The translations under genes were made by a program, and so were the position numbers. A stretch of DNA of 60,954 nt, counting the filler, from Sphacelaria rigidula (Eukaryota): assembly GCA_964200075.2 (NCBI GenBank). It is 7 parts of 7 records of this genome, joined end to end, with 100 filler letters (N's around TTAATTAATTAA, not from the genome) between each part and the next. Parts side by side here need not be neighbours in the genome. Positions count along the whole stretch, not along the records: positions 34,891 to 43,512 come from CAXNAA020010578.1; 6 more parts are not named here. One strand, given 5' to 3'. How positions within the stretch are numbered: the first letter of the stretch is position 1; each line of letters opens with the position of its first letter. Below the pieces are notes generated by a model that was not told the origin of the DNA, searched no databases, and worked only from the letters and a program-made list of their open reading frames with translations. Of this stretch, positions 7,235 to 52,333 are shown in pieces.

Positions 7235-7755
7235 TTACGTCATGTAGAGGGATTTGTAACACTTTAAATGAAATAACTTGAAATTAGGGCATGCGTTACA
7301 TAATTCGACCCGTGACCGTGAATCCATGGCCCTGTTTGATGAACGACATATGGTTGAGAATTTACAGCTTTCACGTAAAACTATTAGCCCGAGGCGTGTT
7401 TTTCGGACCCGTATTAAAATGCGCCGCAGGGGAACACGGGACTCAGTATATAAAAATTGGATATGTGGTGCCGGTTTTTGTTTGTATAGACTACAGGGAT
7501 CTGTGTGCTGATTTTGGCTGTGTGCACAAACTTGAACAAACTTGACCCGTTGCGTCCCCTCACAGGATAAAACTAATCCGACCGCACCGGGGTGACATAT
7601 TTGGTGCGCGCATGACGTATGGTGGTGGATTCTTCTGTGGCCTTTGACCGTAAAAATGGTTGCCGTCGATCTTATCTGTTCCAATCTTTCCTTCGTCAGG
7701 GCTTGAAATAATGAGGCGTCTGGCCCGGGGGCGGAAGGGGAAGGTTCCGAAAGGG
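7235..7755 (-). mobile_element. Possible piggyBac-like remnant (TTAA-CCCTTT terminus plus Cys/His-rich ORF end)
   Basis: TTAA at 7756-7759 abuts ccctttcggaacc on the minus strand. The adjacent ORF ends ...RSRVELCNACPNFKLFHLKCYKSL, reminiscent of a piggyBac C-terminal Cys-rich domain. The second end was not found. Confidence 0.35.
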
Positions 7756-7766
7756 TTAATGTGAAG

Positions 7767-7767
<1 letters not shown>

Positions 7768-7829
<62 letters not shown>
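7768..7829. repeat. (CAA)n microsatellite
   Basis: Perfect trinucleotide run. Confidence 0.95.
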
Positions 7830-7832
<3 letters not shown>

Positions 7833-8342
7833 GTATGTATACCGCGAATTCAGAAACCATCAAATTTTTCAAAAAAAAAAAATCCGTTTCAAAATATGCA
7901 TCCTTGTCAAAATGTCACCATGGTATTCTCGTTCCAGACACGGTAGATTTTCTTCTCATTTTTTTTGTTCTTACATTTTTCCGGATAAATATTTTGTGAG
8001 ACTATGGTGATACCGGTTGGCTTCGTTTAGTTGATGGCGTCCACTCTGTTTTTGCATCCCTTTTCACCTCTCCATGCCACGTTGCCCCATTCCCCCTTCT
8101 TGGACATCAGAGAGTTTCGGAAAGCGCTTTTTTTGCCATTTTAGAGAACAATTATCTCATGCTCCCGGTGCAACGTAAAAAAAACACCTCAATGAAGGAA
8201 AGTCAAGGAGGATACCACATTTGACGGAGGGGGAAACAATTTTTCGTTACGCTCTGATCCCGAGACATTCGCACTCTGAAAGGAAAAAAAAAGCGTTTTA
8301 CGAAACTCTCTATTTTTCACCTATTAGTAGGGGTCTTATTAA

Positions 8343-8623: not shown

Positions 8624-8723
8624 NNNNNNNNNNNNNNNNNNNNNNNNNNNNNNNNNNNNNNNNNNNNTTAATTAATTAANNNNNNNNNNNNNNNNNNNNN
8701 NNNNNNNNNNNNNNNNNNNNNNN
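8624..8723. other. Artificial contig-joining spacer N44-TTAATTAATTAA-N44
   Basis: Identical 100-nt spacer occurs six times at ~8.72-kb spacing. The linker has stops in all six frames. Confidence 0.98.
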
Positions 8724-17346: not shown

Positions 17347-17446
17347 NNNNNNNNNNNNNNNNNNNNNNNNNNNNNNNNNNNNNNNNNNNNTTAATTAATT
17401 AANNNNNNNNNNNNNNNNNNNNNNNNNNNNNNNNNNNNNNNNNNNN
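17347..17446. other. Artificial contig-joining spacer
   Basis: N44-TTAATTAATTAA-N44. Confidence 0.98.
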
Positions 17447-26068: not shown

Positions 26069-26168
26069 NNNNNNNNNNNNNNNNNNNNNNNNNNNNNNNN
26101 NNNNNNNNNNNNTTAATTAATTAANNNNNNNNNNNNNNNNNNNNNNNNNNNNNNNNNNNNNNNNNNNN
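26069..26168. other. Artificial contig-joining spacer
   Basis: N44-TTAATTAATTAA-N44. Confidence 0.98.
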
Positions 26169-34790: not shown

Positions 34791-34890
34791 NNNNNNNNNN
34801 NNNNNNNNNNNNNNNNNNNNNNNNNNNNNNNNNNTTAATTAATTAANNNNNNNNNNNNNNNNNNNNNNNNNNNNNNNNNNNNNNNNNNNN
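34791..34890. other. Artificial contig-joining spacer
   Basis: N44-TTAATTAATTAA-N44. Confidence 0.98.
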
Positions 34891-35768: not shown

Positions 35769-36351
35769 AGGCCGGATGTTATGGCAAACAGATTTTTGGC
35801 TCCAAAGTTTCGAGATTGGCCGCTGAAGAATAATCCGTGTGCAACAAAATCTATGGCGATCTCCACAGATTATTGGGCAAACTGNNNNNNNNNNTTTTTG
35901 TTCAGCGGCCAATCTCGAAACCTTGGAGCCAAGCGAATCTGAAAAGTGGGCTAGGCTCCTCTATGTGAAGTGATGCAAAGTGTCCAAGACGTGTCTTGGC
36001 GATTTTCTCTGTTTGGGGGTCAAAAGGGGGATCAAAGGTCCCAAAGGTGAACAATCCGTGGGCCAAAAATCTGTTTGCCATAACATCCGGCCTGACCCCC
36101 CCCGCCAGTTTGCCCAATAATAATCTGTGGATTGAATTTTGTTGCAAATGGAATTTTGTTCAGGAGCCAATCTCGAAACCTCGGAGCCAAGCGAATCTGA
36201 AAAGTGGGCTAGGCTCCTCTCTGTGAGGTGATGCGAAGTGTCCAAGACGTGTGTTGGCGACTTTCCCTGTTTGGGGGTCAAAAGGGGGGTCAAATGTCCC
36301 CAAAGTGAACAATCCGTGTGCCAAATTTATGTTTGCCATAACATCCGGCCT
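35769..36351. mobile_element. TIR element with a tandemly duplicated right arm (contains a 10-N scaffold gap)
   Basis: aggccggatgttatggcaaaca / tgtttgccataacatccggcct. A ~185-bp block is repeated at ~35907-36092 and ~36166-36351. Confidence 0.7.
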
Positions 36352-38289
36352 ACTGCGATGAGCGGTGGCAAGTGAAGCAAATTTGAAAAAAAAATGGGGA
36401 GCACGAGTTCTGCATACTTTTGATGCTGATTACTACTGTAAATGCACTGAATCTGGACTGGTTGTGCAGCTATCCCTGGAAATAAAATGAACCCAACCCT
36501 TACATGAGACGTCACAAACGTCGTTTTGAAAATATTTTCTACACCATCGTACGCGTCATGAAAACGGTTCTTGGCTTTGGATGAGGCTTCGAATATAGGA
36601 TATACTGCAACAGCCGAGACAAGAGAGGGTCGGCAACAGCCAGCAAGTGACTCCAAGGTCAGATAAGTTGTTCAGGACCCGTCGGTGTCAGTTCTGAAAC
36701 TTCCTTCGACGTTTGCCAGCCCAGATCCGACCCGATCAGGCCACGCGTCACGTCTACTCCACCCAATTCGATGGCATAAATTCGTATCAAGGGTTGTTTT
36801 TTTCAATAACGTCCCATCAATGCCTCCACGTGCCAATGCTGGGTGTAACATGTGGGTAATTTTCTAGTGAGGAGAGGGTTGACACCGCAAGAAGATGGAC
36901 CTTGGATTCAGCGTTTCCACCAAGTTCCCAGTCTGATGCATCTCAATCCAAGTTAGAAGTAAGAAAGCAACACTCTGACCTCGATGGTCACCGAACTGCC
37001 CCTCAATAAACGTATATTTCCGCGGTCTTCAAACCAGTACGCATCATCCTTCACGCCTCCGTTTACCCCCTCTCTCGTCCGTGTTCACACCGTGCCATGT
37101 ACGCATCCATTCTGTATAGGACGAAGGGCGTTCTCGATGTTGAGTTCCACTTCGATTATTCCTTGAAGGGAAACTCATCAAGATGAATGGATGACAAACC
37201 GATGCCAGGGTCGGACGAATAATGATTTGTCCGAACATTACTTGCTTTTAGGGTGGAAGTTGATTCGTATCGTACGAATTCAATCCTTGGGCTTTGACTT
37301 TTGAGTATCGCCCCAGGTGCGTGAAATAGCACAAAAATTACGAAGATAATGTTTTGACCTGGCGGTCAACTTCTTACCCCGGTCAAAGAAATCGTAGGCC
37401 TATTGATTCCAAGCAGCTGTAATTTGTCCGACAGTTAAACTGATGTCATTGTTGATGTGATATGCGCGACATACAACATTTTACGATGGCAGCGATGCAC
37501 CAAGGCAACTTGCGCGGGAAACGCTGCCGCTACCACCGTCGCTCGTCTATTACACTGTACCTGTCATCATATATAGACTAGTACAACGCCGTACTTCATT
37601 TTGCTCAAGTCATCGGGACTCCGAATACATATTTTGCAGCACACCACGCCGTGTAAGATGCAACGAAGCACGTAACTCTAACCACACGAACAAAACGCAG
37701 TTTTAGTTCATGTTTTTACCGAGTCTGATCTATCGGCGTGCCTATGATTCAATCTCCTCAAACATGCGGGTATGCGTTGACTGTGCCCCCCCCAAACCCA
37801 ATACCAACCCCGATGGCAGGGGCGGGGGAGCGGGGGGAGGGGCGGGGGCGTCCAGCTCCCAGTAGGAATGAAAAAATAGAGCGGTAAGGAAGGCAAACAT
37901 AATCTTTCGCGACCCGTTGGAAAAAAGGCACAATTGGACCAATTACATCCAACATCTGGATACATTTTCCGCCTCATCAATGCACGGGAAAGCTGGATGA
38001 AACAAGGAGTTTCCCTGGCACCGTGCCTGCACTACTGCTCCCCGCCAAGGAGACAACTTGCCGTACGATACTGACACGAATACTTCGATCAGCAAAAATT
38101 CAATCCCGACATATTCGATATTTTGCGGCCGCGTTTCAAATCGTGATATATCCAGGGTCGTGAGAACAGCGTGGAGCTCTCGGGCATACGTCCCTGGCCC
38201 TTGCTACGGCCATGAAGTGTCATCATCGCAAAACAAATCACAATTTCCGGAAGTTATCGCGTCATATTTAGCACTTGCTCCAGATACAT

Positions 38290-38398
38290 TTAAAACGACT
38301 GCTCCCTATGTTTGCGTTCGCGAGCGCGCATGATACGATCCTTCTTCCTATTCTCCTCGTTCTTCCGCTTCTTCCTCTCTGCTACGGTCTCGAAGCGC
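38290..38398 (-). CDS. rpsU: bS21-like ribosomal protein, distal terminal exon
   Basis: tttacag| acceptor, phase 2. Encodes RFETVAERKKRKNEENRKKDRIMRARERKHREQSF*, matching the bS21 R(H/Y)FETxxEKRKRK motif. Confidence 0.7.
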
Positions 38399-38889
38399 CT
38401 GTAAAGGTGGAAAATGACATGTAACGAGAACAACGAGAACAAGGGACAAGGAAATACCACTCAGGACACCTGTTGATATTTGTTCGTGCACGAGTAAAAA
38501 GGAAAGCGCACGCTTGCAAGTGGAAACCGACGTGTCTTCTCGAACATATTTTCGACAAATATGTAGCGCACTCCGCACGAAGATTGCCTCGTCAAGAAGT
38601 GTACTGCGCTCAGTGTCGCAGACAGATTTACACCATTTCGTCGATCGTTGGGCTGTCTGTCCACCGCTTCCTCTTTCGCAGTGTTCGAAGAGCAATAGCT
38701 GGGACACTTTGGAATGAAACGGTTATCACACCGCCGAGAGATTCCAAAACCCAGCTCGTAGAACTGTCTTTCGATGACTTTCTTGTTTTCTCAAGCTCAG
38801 CTGACTTGGAAAAAAGTGTGCCAGACATTCGAGAGACATGGGTTACCATACCGACCTAGTTCGTGGAATTTTCTCTCCATGTTCTAATT

Positions 38890-39001
38890 TTAGTACTGGT
38901 CGTATTGAGCTGCCCTCCGTTCACGGTTCCGTTCTAAGCGCTCCCTGCGGCGATTTTCTTCGGTCTTCCTTTTTCTCTTCTCCTGAGTGGTCTCGAACCG
39001 C
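38890..39001 (-). CDS. rpsU: bS21-like ribosomal protein, proximal terminal exon
   Basis: atcag| acceptor, phase 2. Encodes RFETTQEKRKRKTEENRRRERLERNRERRAAQYDQY*. Confidence 0.75.
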
Positions 39002-40753
39002 CTGATCTCGTGAACGCCGAAAAAAAAACACAAATACAACAACGGCAAGAGGTGCCGGCCAAAAAATCACAACAACAAACGAATTCGGCGCGAGTTTCCG
39101 GTCAGTCCACTCCGAAAGCGTGCTACAGTACCGGTACTGTTAGATGCCAGAACCTCCCAAGCCTTAAACCTTCAGACGGCAAGAGTCATTCATCTGTCTA
39201 ATCAGCGTTAATTTCACTTGAAAATAGCATACAGACTGACTATCCTCGCTGTCTGAGGCTGAAACAAAAAAAGGGGACACAGCTCGAAGGGCCGGAGAAT
39301 CAAGAACAAGAAAAATAATAACGATCACAAGAGGTAAAAGCCATCACACACAACCCAGTTTTCTCTATAAAACTTTGCGGCATCCAATTGACCGCTCCCC
39401 AAGACACATTCTTCCTTCTACAGTCACTGCATTCTCCCTTCAGAGTACACTATCTTCCCCAACGTATCAAGCCTCAACTTCGTCTACATTGAATGTACGC
39501 CAGCGCGCAACACTACGCCAGGGTGTGCTACACTCTCTTTTTACAACTTCGACTTTTACTCCCCACCCTTTCGCCGATTCCTCCTCTGGACGAGTCTGAG
39601 GTCTCACCGAATTGATTCATCTCTCCCCCGGTACCTTCCTCGCCCTCGATCATCAGCCATGGAATCAGCCCTCTCGAAACAATCACCTCACATCGAATTC
39701 AAACGTCATCTGTCACCTCGTTGCCTCACATTTTCGAAAGACGGGCATCTGAAAAGAATATTCTGCAGTGCCGAGATTCCAACCTTCGAGATCCACCCCC
39801 AACTAGAGTCGTACCAGTTTGACTATCAACGGGTCGAGAGTCGAATCTCCCCGACTATACGTCCATGCCGAGTAGTCCCACTTTATTTGGTTCGGTAGCA
39901 ATTTCGTGAGTTTTTCTGCAAAACATGGTGCGTGCTGGTGTAGATGGACGCTTAGAGGACACGGGCCGCTGTCATCAGTGTTGACCGAAGTCGTGTGTCA
40001 CCGTTTTTCACGAAGGATTCCTCCTGTGCTGTGCAACGGCCTGAGAAACGGCAACTTGATTGCTCAGTGCTCAGTGATTTTCCAGTGATCCTGTTGTACA
40101 ACTGACCACGGCTTGTTGCTCACTCGCGGGGGGCGATATCGGCCACAGGCGACGTTGGCAACCTCAAGCGGGGTAACAGAGCCACGGCCGCGCGGTCGGA
40201 ATCCTTTACGGGTGCTTCAGGAAAGCATGGAAGTCGCGTGTTACAGTCAACATCAATACATTTTGAAGACGTTTCAAGTCAACCCTGCGTGGGAATCAGG
40301 TACCCTCTCAAAGCGGTGCCAAGTACCTATATCACGCCGTGGTATAATCATGATCAAGGGCAAATGAGTTACCCACCGTATGCAAGCCACTAGCCGATGT
40401 GGCTGTACTCGCATGGGAACCTATATAATAAGTACACGCATTTTACTGCACTCGAGTATAAATCCTCACATGAGTACACATTACTACATGTATAGATATT
40501 CATGGAAAATGCCGATGCATCTATAACATGCGTGCGGTCGTCATCCTTTCAATTCCTTTCCTTCCTTGGGACGGGTGCGTGATCCCAAGCGATCAACCCA
40601 TACCTCCCGCGGCGCACGCCTTGCATTTCGGTTATCGAGGATTGGATCAGCACTACTTCCGCATCGCGTCGACTCTCATCCATCAAACTTCCTCAGCTCC
40701 TCACGTCCCCACGCTTTCAACGGCAGATAGATACTTGTCAAAACTACCAAGTC

Positions 40754-41055
40754 GTGTGTTGTCGTCCCATCTGTTCTGGACGCCAATCTACACCTTTCGG
40801 TAGATGTGGGCGCATCAGCCAGGGTCGGACGAGGGGAAGACCAACACAGGAGTTCCTTCATCTTCTATCTTGTTCTAGTACTCAACCTTCCTTCTGGGGT
40901 GCTTGCTTCATATTTTTTTTCGCGAGAGGAGTTCAGCGGTCCCTTCCCCTCGTCGACCCTTCAGTCGAGTTTCGTGTACCAGTCGCTCTCCACTGTTGGG
41001 TATGCTATCAAAAAAAATCCACGATCGCGTGAATTCACCGAGATTTAAACCCACC
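40754..41055 (-). mobile_element. tRNA-derived SINE copy
   Basis: Reverse-complement match to the SINE family body and tail. Confidence 0.75.
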
Positions 41056-41082
41056 AACTACGTTATGGTATTTACAGTTTTG

Positions 41083-41345
41083 CACATGTCGGACAGATCA
41101 TGAGCTATTAATACCTGGAATAACTCATCAAAGGGAACTCTCAGATCAATTGTACAAGAACATGAGACACGTGACAGCAGTGTCCGAGAAGCCAAAGCGT
41201 TACCTTACCGCTACACGGCGTGCTCGTCGTCCATCGCTGTCGGGAACTAATACGGAACTAGTGGCCAAATCAGCTAGCTCATTATCCGGATCACTTCTCT
41301 AATAACAAGTCATATCCAGGTAGCTCATGAGTTGTCCGACGTGGG
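41083..41345. mobile_element. hAT-like MITE (same family as 20018-20275)
   Basis: TIRs cacatgtcggacagatcatgagcta / tagctcatgagttgtccgacgtggg. TSD CAGTTTTG / CAGTTGTG. Confidence 0.85.
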
Positions 41346-41949
41346 CAGTTGTGTACGCCGAAGGAATCTCATGTTCATTTCGAGGGACAATGTGGTAAAG
41401 CGGGGACGTCGCCACAGGTCAGAGCGGCACGGCCGTCAACCCCAGCTCTCGATACAATCGTTTGTCTTAGCTCACACGGTGGCATATGACACCTCATAAA
41501 AATATCGCCAAGGCAGCGACACATCCGATCACACAATAGGATTCATTGTTCACTTCAATTTTTCAGTTTGGGGACGAAGACAGGCATGCCGGCTCCAACC
41601 CACAATATCGCCGATAAGGGCTGTGGGCACATTCCACTTCACCTGCAAAAAGTCAACTCCCATTTTCTTGAATAAGCCGAGCTCCAAGACCCCGCAACTA
41701 TCCACTCACTGGGAACCCGCAAATCAAAATTACAAAATGCGGTGCCCGTGGCGCCCTTTTCTCCATCAGCGAAAAACAAAAATGTTTATTGCACAAAGGT
41801 ATCACATAATTTTTACTTCCGATAAGGAACAATACGTGGGGGTAAACACACACTCTCCTATGCAGTAGTGCTGGTTCAGTCCGCGACGCCCCCAAATGCT
41901 GTGCCGTACAGCGCGAGAGATGAGTCAGGTCAGTCCCCCCCACCACCAC

Positions 41950-42017
41950 GGATGCTCCGTCTCGAAAGGGATGCGTGGTCAATAACGACCAAGGCAAGCG
42001 ACAAATGAGTACGCCCG
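41950..42017 (+). mobile_element. LINE extreme 3' end
   Basis: gctccgtctcgaaagggatgcgtggtcaa...caaatgagtacgccc. Confidence 0.75.
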
Positions 42018-43512
42018 CAACCACGGACTCATTCCAAGGTAGGGAGGGGCAATCAACAGTGTCTTGGGCAGAAGAAAAAAGGGAAGAGGGTGAAGAAGAG
42101 GAGTAGAGGACCGGGGACCTAATGCGACGAACAACAAATTTTCGAGGTTACACAGTTCGAGGCCCAATACCTTGATATGTACAAGAGCACGAGAAAATCG
42201 AACGATTAATCCATCGCCCGATAACTTCAAGGTGCGCAACTTCTAAGATTCACGATTAAGATGCTCTTTCGCCGTACGGTATTGTAATGACCACGAGCAC
42301 AAATAAAAAACACATCATCCTACGGTGATCAACAGTAGCCGATCAATGTTTCGGTGTCCAACTCACTGGTCTGTTTGGTATCCGTCGATAGAATCTCCTC
42401 CCGTGACCACAAATACCGATCGACTTTCAGGTGTCCCAACATATTAATTTGCTCAACGTGTATGGATAGCATCTTCCAAAGGTTGCGTTCCAACACGGTA
42501 CACAGCTCAAAATTCAAGTCATTTTGTCAGTAACTACCTTTCCGGCACATACCACATTGTTCGGCAGAGACCGCCGAACCGTACCGGAATATTCCGTTCA
42601 CATTTTGGTATGGTTTAGAACTATTTTATTTGTTTGTTTCACTTTGGATCCTTTCCCTTTCCCTCCCTCGGGATGAGTTCGTGCTTTCAAGAGATCAGTT
42701 CATCTCTCTCATGGTACACGCCTTGCCCTTTACTCTCGCGGATTGGGTCAGCACTCCCGCACCGCCGCCGCGTCAACTCACGTCAAACGAACTCAGTCGA
42801 CCACTTCGTTTTCTCACGTTCTCATGCTTTCGACGGTGGAAATCAGACATAACGGAGAAAAAAAACCAACGCGTTGGGAACCGAACCCTCGTTCTCTCTA
42901 CCCTAATGGCGAGAGTCGGATCATGCACCACCGGCGCGCATGGTACGCCGAGCAAAAATTCCTCACCTCAGTACACAACTCGGGATCTTCATTATCCCTA
43001 CCATGACCAACAGTACATTCCACATCTGGAAGCCCAAGACCTTGACCTGTTCAATACTTCAAGGGTGTGTTCTGTACGGTATACCGGCTGAAAATTCGGA
43101 TGTTTACCAAAGTGTAAAGAGGTACTTTCGCGGTAAATACCCTTCGGAAAAAAACTGGAATTGATTGAATGATCATGTATCTCGCATTAGCTGATTGCAA
43201 CAATCCAGCCCGTGGTCAGGAGCAGCGAAAAAAAAGCAGAATGAGAAAGAAGGAAAGGAACAGAAAAAGACAGAAGCAATAGCCACAGAAAGAATAGAAG
43301 AGAGGAAGCAGCGACAACAACAACAGCAATCCCAACAACACAGACACAGACACAGACACACACAAGACAACACCAACAAAGTCATCATCTCGCATTACGT
43401 AGCTGATTTCAACAATCCAGCTCGTGATCGGGAACACAAGTAAAAATGGGAAAACATCAAAGAATAAAACGTGGAGAAAGGAAGACAGAGCCAGGCTCGT
43501 TTCGGGGGGGGG

Positions 43513-43612
43513 NNNNNNNNNNNNNNNNNNNNNNNNNNNNNNNNNNNNNNNNNNNNTTAATTAATTAANNNNNNNNNNNNNNNNNNNNNNNNNNNNNNNN
43601 NNNNNNNNNNNN
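43513..43612. other. Artificial contig-joining spacer
   Basis: N44-TTAATTAATTAA-N44. Confidence 0.98.
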
Positions 43613-52233: not shown

Positions 52234-52333
52234 NNNNNNNNNNNNNNNNNNNNNNNNNNNNNNNNNNNNNNNNNNNNTTAATTAATTAANNNNNNNNNNN
52301 NNNNNNNNNNNNNNNNNNNNNNNNNNNNNNNNN
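52234..52333. other. Artificial contig-joining spacer
   Basis: N44-TTAATTAATTAA-N44. Confidence 0.98.

Follow-up and report, generated by a model that had tools for sequence, protein, structure and literature searches.

Tandem duplicated tail exons in a probable ribosomal protein S21 gene of Sphacelaria rigidula, one a stop-containing cassette and the other the sole terminal exon

The DNA of Sphacelaria rigidula analysed here, a stretch of 60,954 nucleotides (filler included) that we call the window, carries two adjacent and homologous exons on its minus strand, A and B, each encoding a short basic C-terminal tail. We consider it likely that both belong to a single nuclear S21 gene, in which they form two tandem duplicated tail exons, and that an upstream exon, U, is spliced either to exon A, and then on to exon B, or to exon B directly, giving two isoforms. 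The anatomy of the exons, three splice junctions and the homology between A and B are established by the present analysis. Exon B, which extends from 38398 to about 37001, is the sole terminal exon, and exon A is an internal cassette exon.

The two segments start at 39001 and 38398, each preceded by a CAG acceptor. The context of the exon A start reads ...gatcAG/G CGG TTC GAG... (the slash marks the splice boundary) and that of the exon B start ...tttacAG/G CGC TTC GAG..., and the acceptor phase is identical in both, the first exon base being the last base of a codon begun upstream, after which the two frames continue with R-F-E-T. The exon A tail peptide, RFETTQEKRKRKTEENRRRERLERNRERRAAQYDQY, comprises 36 residues and ends at a TAA codon (38892-38890), and the exon B tail peptide, RFETVAERKKRKNEENRKKDRIMRARERKHREQSF, comprises 35 residues and ends at another (38292-38290). 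Both are basic, and they differ mostly in their final third, ...RLERNRERRAAQYDQY vs ...RIMRARERKHREQSF. The earlier note had described two minus-strand segments with CAG acceptors in the same phase, each ending in TAA, a description that matches the sequence and its translations exactly. Exon A also possesses a donor, TAG/GTCGGT, which is non-consensus. The features of the locus are the following:

39004..43214, minus strand: presumed long intron upstream of exon A, visible part (low-depth contigs of runs X1-X3)
39002..39003, minus strand: AG acceptor of exon A, with a T-rich tract at ~39005-39030 before it
38856..39001, minus strand: exon A, internal cassette, 146 nt (sequence and RNA-like contigs of X1-X3)
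39000-38893, minus strand: coding part of exon A, 36 codons, followed by TAA at 38892-38890 and by 34 untranslated nt up to the donor
38855-38854, minus strand: GT donor of exon A, 34 nt past the exon A stop codon
38399..38855, minus strand: intron A-B, 457 nt, GT..AG (contig joint in X1-X3)
38290..38398, minus strand: coding part of exon B, 35 codons at 38397-38293 and TAA at 38292-38290 (sequence and translation)
37001..38289, minus strand: 3'UTR of exon B, ~1.29 kb, common to both mRNA forms (single RNA-like contigs)

Splicing was analysed with the sequencing contigs of four runs mapped on positions 36000-43400, the candidate runs numbering eight in two studies. Three of them, X1 to X3, are three samples of one study, whose records do not label the runs as RNA, so their RNA status is taken from the behaviour of the contigs. 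The fourth run, X5, reports one flat contig of 4.5 kb (36285-40782) at a depth of 64.3 and without any junction; X5 is therefore a DNA run, and the region is single-copy. In X1-X3, high depth is confined to 37001-38400 (416-748) and 38855-39003 (about 1300-2250), and contigs elsewhere have depths of 3.6-12. A joint from 38397 to 38855, skipping 457 nt with CT..AC borders on the plus strand, that is GT..AG on the minus strand, is found at depths of 2252 in X1, 2011 in X2, and 1328 in X3, and at 0 in X5. Unspliced contigs across the A-B intron (38399-38855) have depths of 3.6-7.2 in X1-X3, and the high-depth contig over exon A stops at 38855, beyond which only these depths of 3.6-7.2 are observed. 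The joined form is hence 100-600 times deeper than the unspliced form of the same run, which is not the behaviour of genomic DNA, and X1-X3 are therefore read as RNA.

Contigs that fit the window up to 39003, present in X1, X2, and X3, continue with 25 letters of an exon absent from the window. Those that fit up to 38400, present in X1 and X2, continue with the identical 25 upstream-exon letters, so both acceptors are joined to one and the same upstream exon. The U-B contig is not a misread U-A contig, since several of the 28 exon bases covered distinguish A from B. The U-B junction is seen in two of the three RNA-like runs, as a single contig each, and all three junctions derive from assembled contigs of one study, from which strand and isoform ratios are unreadable. 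If the AG that it shares with the intron is counted, the upstream exon ends in codons for HLQDLRWK plus the first two bases of an arginine codon, and this frame continues into RFET... in both exons. As for the other two frames of these letters, one holds a TGA and the other yields unrelated short peptides, of unequal lengths in A and B.

The earlier note had proposed that one gene makes both tails, to be checked by looking for junctions from one upstream donor to 39001 and to 38398. Both joins are found in the contigs (39001 in X1-X3; 38398 in X1 and X2), and the single gene stands, with a common upstream exon joined to both acceptors and exon A spliced to exon B. It had further proposed that A and B are alternative last exons, and here the result goes the other way: exon A has a GT donor 34 nt past its stop codon and is spliced from it to the exon B acceptor, and in place of the separate 3' ends expected of alternative last exons there is a single terminal exon with one 3'UTR. 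What survives of splice-chosen tails is the choice of tail by splicing, and what falls is the choice between two last exons. Strict mutual exclusion of A and B in mature mRNA does not hold either, the A-B junction being present in X1-X3.

Exon B is covered by contigs at 37001-38400 (X1), 37231-38400 (X2), and 37002-38400 (X3), with depths of 416-748, and the bins downstream of the contig end near 37001 (36494-36987) have a depth of 0 in X1-X3. A rough bin-sum calculation reproduces the known junctions (2011 for A-B in X2; 2223 for U-A in X1, vs 2252 for the exon A contig) and leaves an excess at the 5' end of exon B that fits a U-B contig of ~1700, 1500, and 950 in X1, X2, and X3, respectively. 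This excess hints that exon A is skipped at ~40%, and hence that skipping is not rare, contig depth being a poor measure of it. Within the 3'UTR, two bases differ from the window in all four runs, X5 among them: T replaces C at 37791, and T replaces A at 37796. The cause is a difference between strains or else an assembly error in the window. No Pfam family was returned for 20 ORFs of 69-219 residues from the surroundings of the exons, the 3'UTR, and the upstream region, on both strands, including six that lie in or overlap the 3'UTR (37001-38289).

The relationship between the two tails is clear from their comparison. Their local BLOSUM62 score of 96 is not reached by any of 20,000 shuffles of preserved composition, whose mean is 40.0 (sd 5.7). 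A tblastn search of the whole window with either tail peptide yields the other exon as the sole good match (E about 2e-9), and the next-best matches in the window have E values of 0.09 for the exon A query and 1.2 for the exon B query. A and B are identical at 17 of 33 residues and at 53 of 99 nucleotides, and the DNA of their neighbourhoods has in common only a stretch of 16 nt at the exon starts. Being adjacent, homologous, of 36 and 35 codons, and of equal phase, they have the attributes of duplicated exons. A comparison of substitutions, as proposed in the earlier note and run here on exon A vs exon B, gives a pS of 0.94 (saturated) and a pN of 0.33 over the first 32 aligned codons, which indicates that A and B arose by an old duplication and that both reading frames have been maintained by selection since. 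The statement that the exons have diverged as DNA and yet kept frame, length, and charge holds as well (53 of 99 nucleotides; 36 vs 35 codons; charge pattern retained).

The same gene may be read more plainly, with only tail A being of consequence: exon A would be effectively constitutive, exon B a relic retained as 3'UTR, and the U-B contigs skipping noise. We find this rather improbable, though it has several observations on its side. The A-B junction is strongly covered in all three RNA-like runs, exon A but not exon B has a Pfam S21 match, and the other records show A-type tails only. The tails come from two further Logan records, P0001 with 89% identity and P0002 with 70%, the latter tail also having the end ...QY; both are ORFs that read through the intron into an A-type tail. 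Searches with the exon A ORF returned only P0001 at longer lengths, nothing at near lengths, and two matches in a representative library. No B-type tail was found in other organisms by the protein search at near lengths, and it is to these near lengths that the B-type search applies. Since the only database relatives of exon A are read-through ORF calls, automatic gene calls misrepresent this gene. P0001 resembles the window to about the same degree in its intron-derived part as in its exon part, which makes it too close a relative to show selection. Against the idea that exon B is a relic, it keeps an open frame, a like length, the RFET..E.KKRK..EEN core, and the charge pattern in spite of the saturated pS, a retention that would be unexpected for an untranslated sequence. 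The otherwise unexplained depth at the 5' end of exon B, as far as so poor a measure as contig depth permits the inference, fits a U-B contig and would mean skipping of ~40%.

Two tail exons of one gene, both in use, therefore remain our preferred reading, and the identity of the protein is the next question. The window encodes only the last 22 of the 55 positions of the Pfam profile PF01165, the C-terminal third of the S21 domain. PF01165 matches exon A with an E value of 0.045 and 13.9 bits, the cut-off being 27. The match covers positions 34-55 of the 55 in the profile, and this is the right place for it, the C-terminal end of the domain. The same search reports no match for exon B or for the tails of both relatives, so that one of the four tail sequences matches. 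The Ribosomal_S21 HMM search that had been advised thus scores exon A below the cut-off and leaves exon B without a match. In the named ESM Atlas clusters nearest to the two exons, 32-46% of the members bear PF01165; the scores, 0.89-0.91, are rated as leads.

A scan of prokaryote genomes with an S21 core motif returned at least 120 loci. Among the 80 matches listed, 78 bear names that we take to be cyanobacterial and two are named 'uncultured bacterium', and the two rpsU loci checked among those numbered L003-L122 score 70.7 and 77.7 bits with PF01165. The 120 loci yielded 121 ORFs, of which 106 were kept (conserved start, 50-80 residues), and a cyanobacterial S21 profile was built from 79 distinct sequences. 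The four targets score as follows against this profile:

exon A: 14.8 bits, best of 2000 shuffles 10.7
exon B: 9.8 bits, best of 2000 shuffles 9.6
upstream tail + exon A: 23.1 bits, best of 2000 shuffles 8.2
upstream tail + exon B: 16.8 bits, best of 2000 shuffles 9.2

Hence, for each of the four targets, 0 of 2000 composition-preserving shuffles reach the profile score. Among 9356 sequences, the profile E values are 2.2e-5 for the upstream tail with exon A and 0.0022 for the upstream tail with exon B, and the alignment spans positions 29-59 of 61. At the domain end, both tails carry the basic C-terminal helix and its ...(F/Y)E.P.E+RKR+ core, exon B scoring barely above its best shuffle. The motif used to gather the profile resembles the query, which makes these scores partly circular; the upstream-exon residues lie outside that motif, and the 7-8 bits they contribute are independent of it. 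A stop-to-stop ORF at 38893-39066 (minus strand), which runs from the intron into exon A, reaches 21.5 bits on the S21 profile vs 14.8 for exon A alone, its intron-coded residues fitting by chance.

Compared with cyanobacterial rpsU, the tails have the core ...FET..EKRKRK... after a basic stretch and at the same position relative to the domain end. The cyanobacterial proteins, however, have a P after FET and a short R/K-rich tail, whereas the tails described here are longer, with E interspersed among R/K, and the gene has introns. On these sequence comparisons, the gene product is very probably ribosomal protein S21; that it is of the cyanobacterial or plastid type is probable at a lower confidence than the S21 identity itself, the motif scan pointing to the cyanobacterial type. 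The earlier claim that the peptides are S21-like accordingly receives weak to moderate support from the Pfam position, the Atlas, and the profile, and lacks a score above the Pfam cut-off and any Pfam match for exon B.

If the protein were not S21, it would be an unrelated protein, spliced as described above, whose lysine/arginine/glutamate-rich tail resembles the S21 C-terminal helix by composition. In keeping with this, the family scores are all below curated thresholds. Among solved structures, a sequence search with A and B returned no match and a profile search no S21, its sole match being eL37 (E 0.41). BLASTP against E. coli S21 was not significant (E 0.27 and 3.0), and none of the pattern matches from the tail-alignment scans (355 from metagenomes, 222 from prokaryote genomes) was confirmed as a relative. 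NCBIfam returned nothing relevant, and tblastn against phage records gave no match. Composition, however, does not account for a Pfam match at the correct end of the profile, for shuffles of the same composition that never reach the profile score of any of the four targets, for upstream residues that were recovered independently and extend the S21 alignment by 7-8 bits, or for the fall of both exons on S21-bearing Atlas clusters, and we judge an unrelated protein to be unlikely.

It is scarcely credible that A and B belong to two tandem genes with separate sets of upstream exons. By eye, the stretch 38631-38760 (minus strand) resembles an N-terminal S21 half followed by a GT in the right phase, but it has no S21 match and is part of an intron that is spliced out in the RNA contigs. 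Exon A, moreover, is joined to exon B by splicing, and the identical 25 upstream letters, found nowhere in the window, stand at both acceptors. This intronic stretch, which reads GVITVSFQSVPAIALRTLRKRKRWTDSPTIDEM, was rejected as an N-terminal S21 half also for not being among the six best window ORFs against the profile; its S21-like look could be due to chance or could be a decayed relic of a larger duplication. The ~490 bp between the exons had been said to hold no N-terminal S21 half, and this is what we find. Another candidate chosen by eye, at 39470-39560, was discarded since it has no Pfam S21 match and is not among the best profile matches.

In the one-gene reading, the shared upstream exon has to be sought elsewhere. 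Its 25-letter end, together with every 12- to 16-mer of that end at up to one mismatch, is absent from the whole window, in agreement with the earlier statement that the exon is missing from this contig, and the 25 letters are absent from metagenome contigs too. Low-depth contigs of X1-X3 (about 6-12) tile 38974-43214, which suggests that 39004-43214 is a long repeat-rich intron upstream of exon A. The upstream exon could lie beyond this intron, outside the window, in a masked N stretch, or on another contig.

Dispersed repeats are located at ~40693-40939, 41928-42174, and 42669-42915, inside the presumed long intron. The summed contig depth at these three sites is thousands of times the single-copy depth of 64 in X5 and is high in X1-X3 too, and the sites exhibit many false joints and a poly-C tract near 42016. 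Paired runs of 44 N recur every ~8.72 kb (8624-8723, 17347-17446, 26069-26168, 34791-34890, 43513-43612, and 52234-52333), with further N's at 35885-35894. The paired runs look like masks rather than assembly gaps, and two of them fall within the region searched for the upstream exon. Far from the locus, at ~7750-7849 (minus strand), an open frame starts with over 20 valine codons in a row, indicative of a trinucleotide microsatellite.

Assuming one S21 gene with two tail exons, exon U would be spliced in one phase to either acceptor, that of exon A (39001) or, directly, that of exon B (38398). Inclusion of exon A would give a U-A-B mRNA in which exon A provides the 36-residue tail and a TAA and exon B serves as 3'UTR only; skipping would give a U-B mRNA in which exon B provides the homologous 35-residue tail with its own TAA. 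Both mRNAs would use one 3'UTR and one 3' end near 37001, and the resulting S21 isoforms would differ only in the basic C-terminal tail, their last 35-36 residues. The exclusivity of the tails would thereby be exerted at translation, via the stop codon in the cassette exon A. This scheme presumes that both mRNAs are translated, that the tails alter the seating of the protein on the small-subunit platform, and that the A-included mRNA escapes nonsense-mediated decay. As to the last of these, the stop codon of exon A lies 34 nt before the last junction, less than 50 nt, and the U-A-B mRNA should therefore escape decay, the 50-55 nt rule coming from mammalian work.

S21 of the bacterial type, bS21, is located next to the 3' end of the rRNA of the small subunit. 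It is conceivable, although we would put it forward only tentatively, that two bS21 tails at the 16S 3' end and mRNA-exit platform shift the choice of the organellar mRNAs that are initiated, and that splicing thereby controls organellar ribosome heterogeneity. Exon A choice would then be regulated by life stage or light. A bolder form of the same idea has one dual-targeted gene with a plastid-fitted tail and a mitochondrion-fitted tail. An 11-nt perfect complement between exon A (38981-38991) and the intron (38456-38466, that is 58-68 nt before the exon B acceptor) would be the candidate element for such regulation; by our own estimate, chance alone would give about 0.17 such pairs in 1.2 kb. 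This pairing could loop out exon A or could mean nothing, and it is a lead only.

Alternative splicing of tandemly duplicated exons, including substitutions and mutually exclusive exons, is the subject of PMC9013439, PMC9741552, and PMC8373072. As in such cases, A and B are adjacent and homologous, of like length and phase, and derived from an old duplication, and the isoforms would be identical save for one segment. Unlike mutually exclusive exons, A and B co-occur in the U-A-B mRNA, and their exclusivity would be set at translation by the exon A stop codon. The present case differs also in that the swapped segment is the C-terminus and that the protein would be a ribosomal protein of the bacterial type in a non-animal eukaryote. 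The arrangement is, on this footing, of a well-known kind, the alternative use of tandem duplicated exons, from which it differs by the stop codon that enforces exclusivity.

The isoforms of the ribosomal protein RPS24 differ at their C-terminus. They arise by the inclusion of small exons before the last exon (PMC11162997). Similarly, the C-terminal end of a ribosomal protein would be set here by including or skipping an internal exon before a common last exon. The RPS24 micro-exons, however, change few residues and are not duplicates of one another, whereas here a whole paralogous tail of 35-36 residues would be swapped; furthermore, RPS24 is cytosolic, and S21 is a bacterial or organellar protein.

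In bacteria, PMC9578407 and PMC13374519 connect the bS21 paralogues of Francisella tularensis with ribosome heterogeneity and the translation of virulence genes, and PMC9976891 reports that the C-terminal portion of bS21 in Flavobacterium johnsoniae contacts the 3' tail of the 16S rRNA and that its removal changes which mRNAs are initiated. As with these variants, where alternative versions yield ribosome subpopulations, two S21 tails could have such an effect, and the C-terminal part at play in F. johnsoniae is the part varied here. The bacterial systems rely on separate genes or on presence and absence of the protein, whereas here the variation would come from splicing one gene. RPS24 is the nearest ribosomal-protein parallel and the bacterial bS21 systems are the nearest functional parallels. 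In the literature found on bS21 splicing and ribosome heterogeneity, tandem exon duplication, and organellar S21 isoforms, supplements excluded, duplicated alternative tail exons in an S21 gene do not appear.

For annotation, the locus calls for caution, as gene callers that read through the intron, as in P0001 and P0002, or that stop at exon A miss the second isoform. Should only one of the tails be functional, the locus would be an ordinary duplicated-exon relic. If, on the other hand, the preferred reading is true, a eukaryote that swaps the tail of S21 by splicing one nuclear gene would offer a simple and genetically tractable form of specialised organellar ribosomes.
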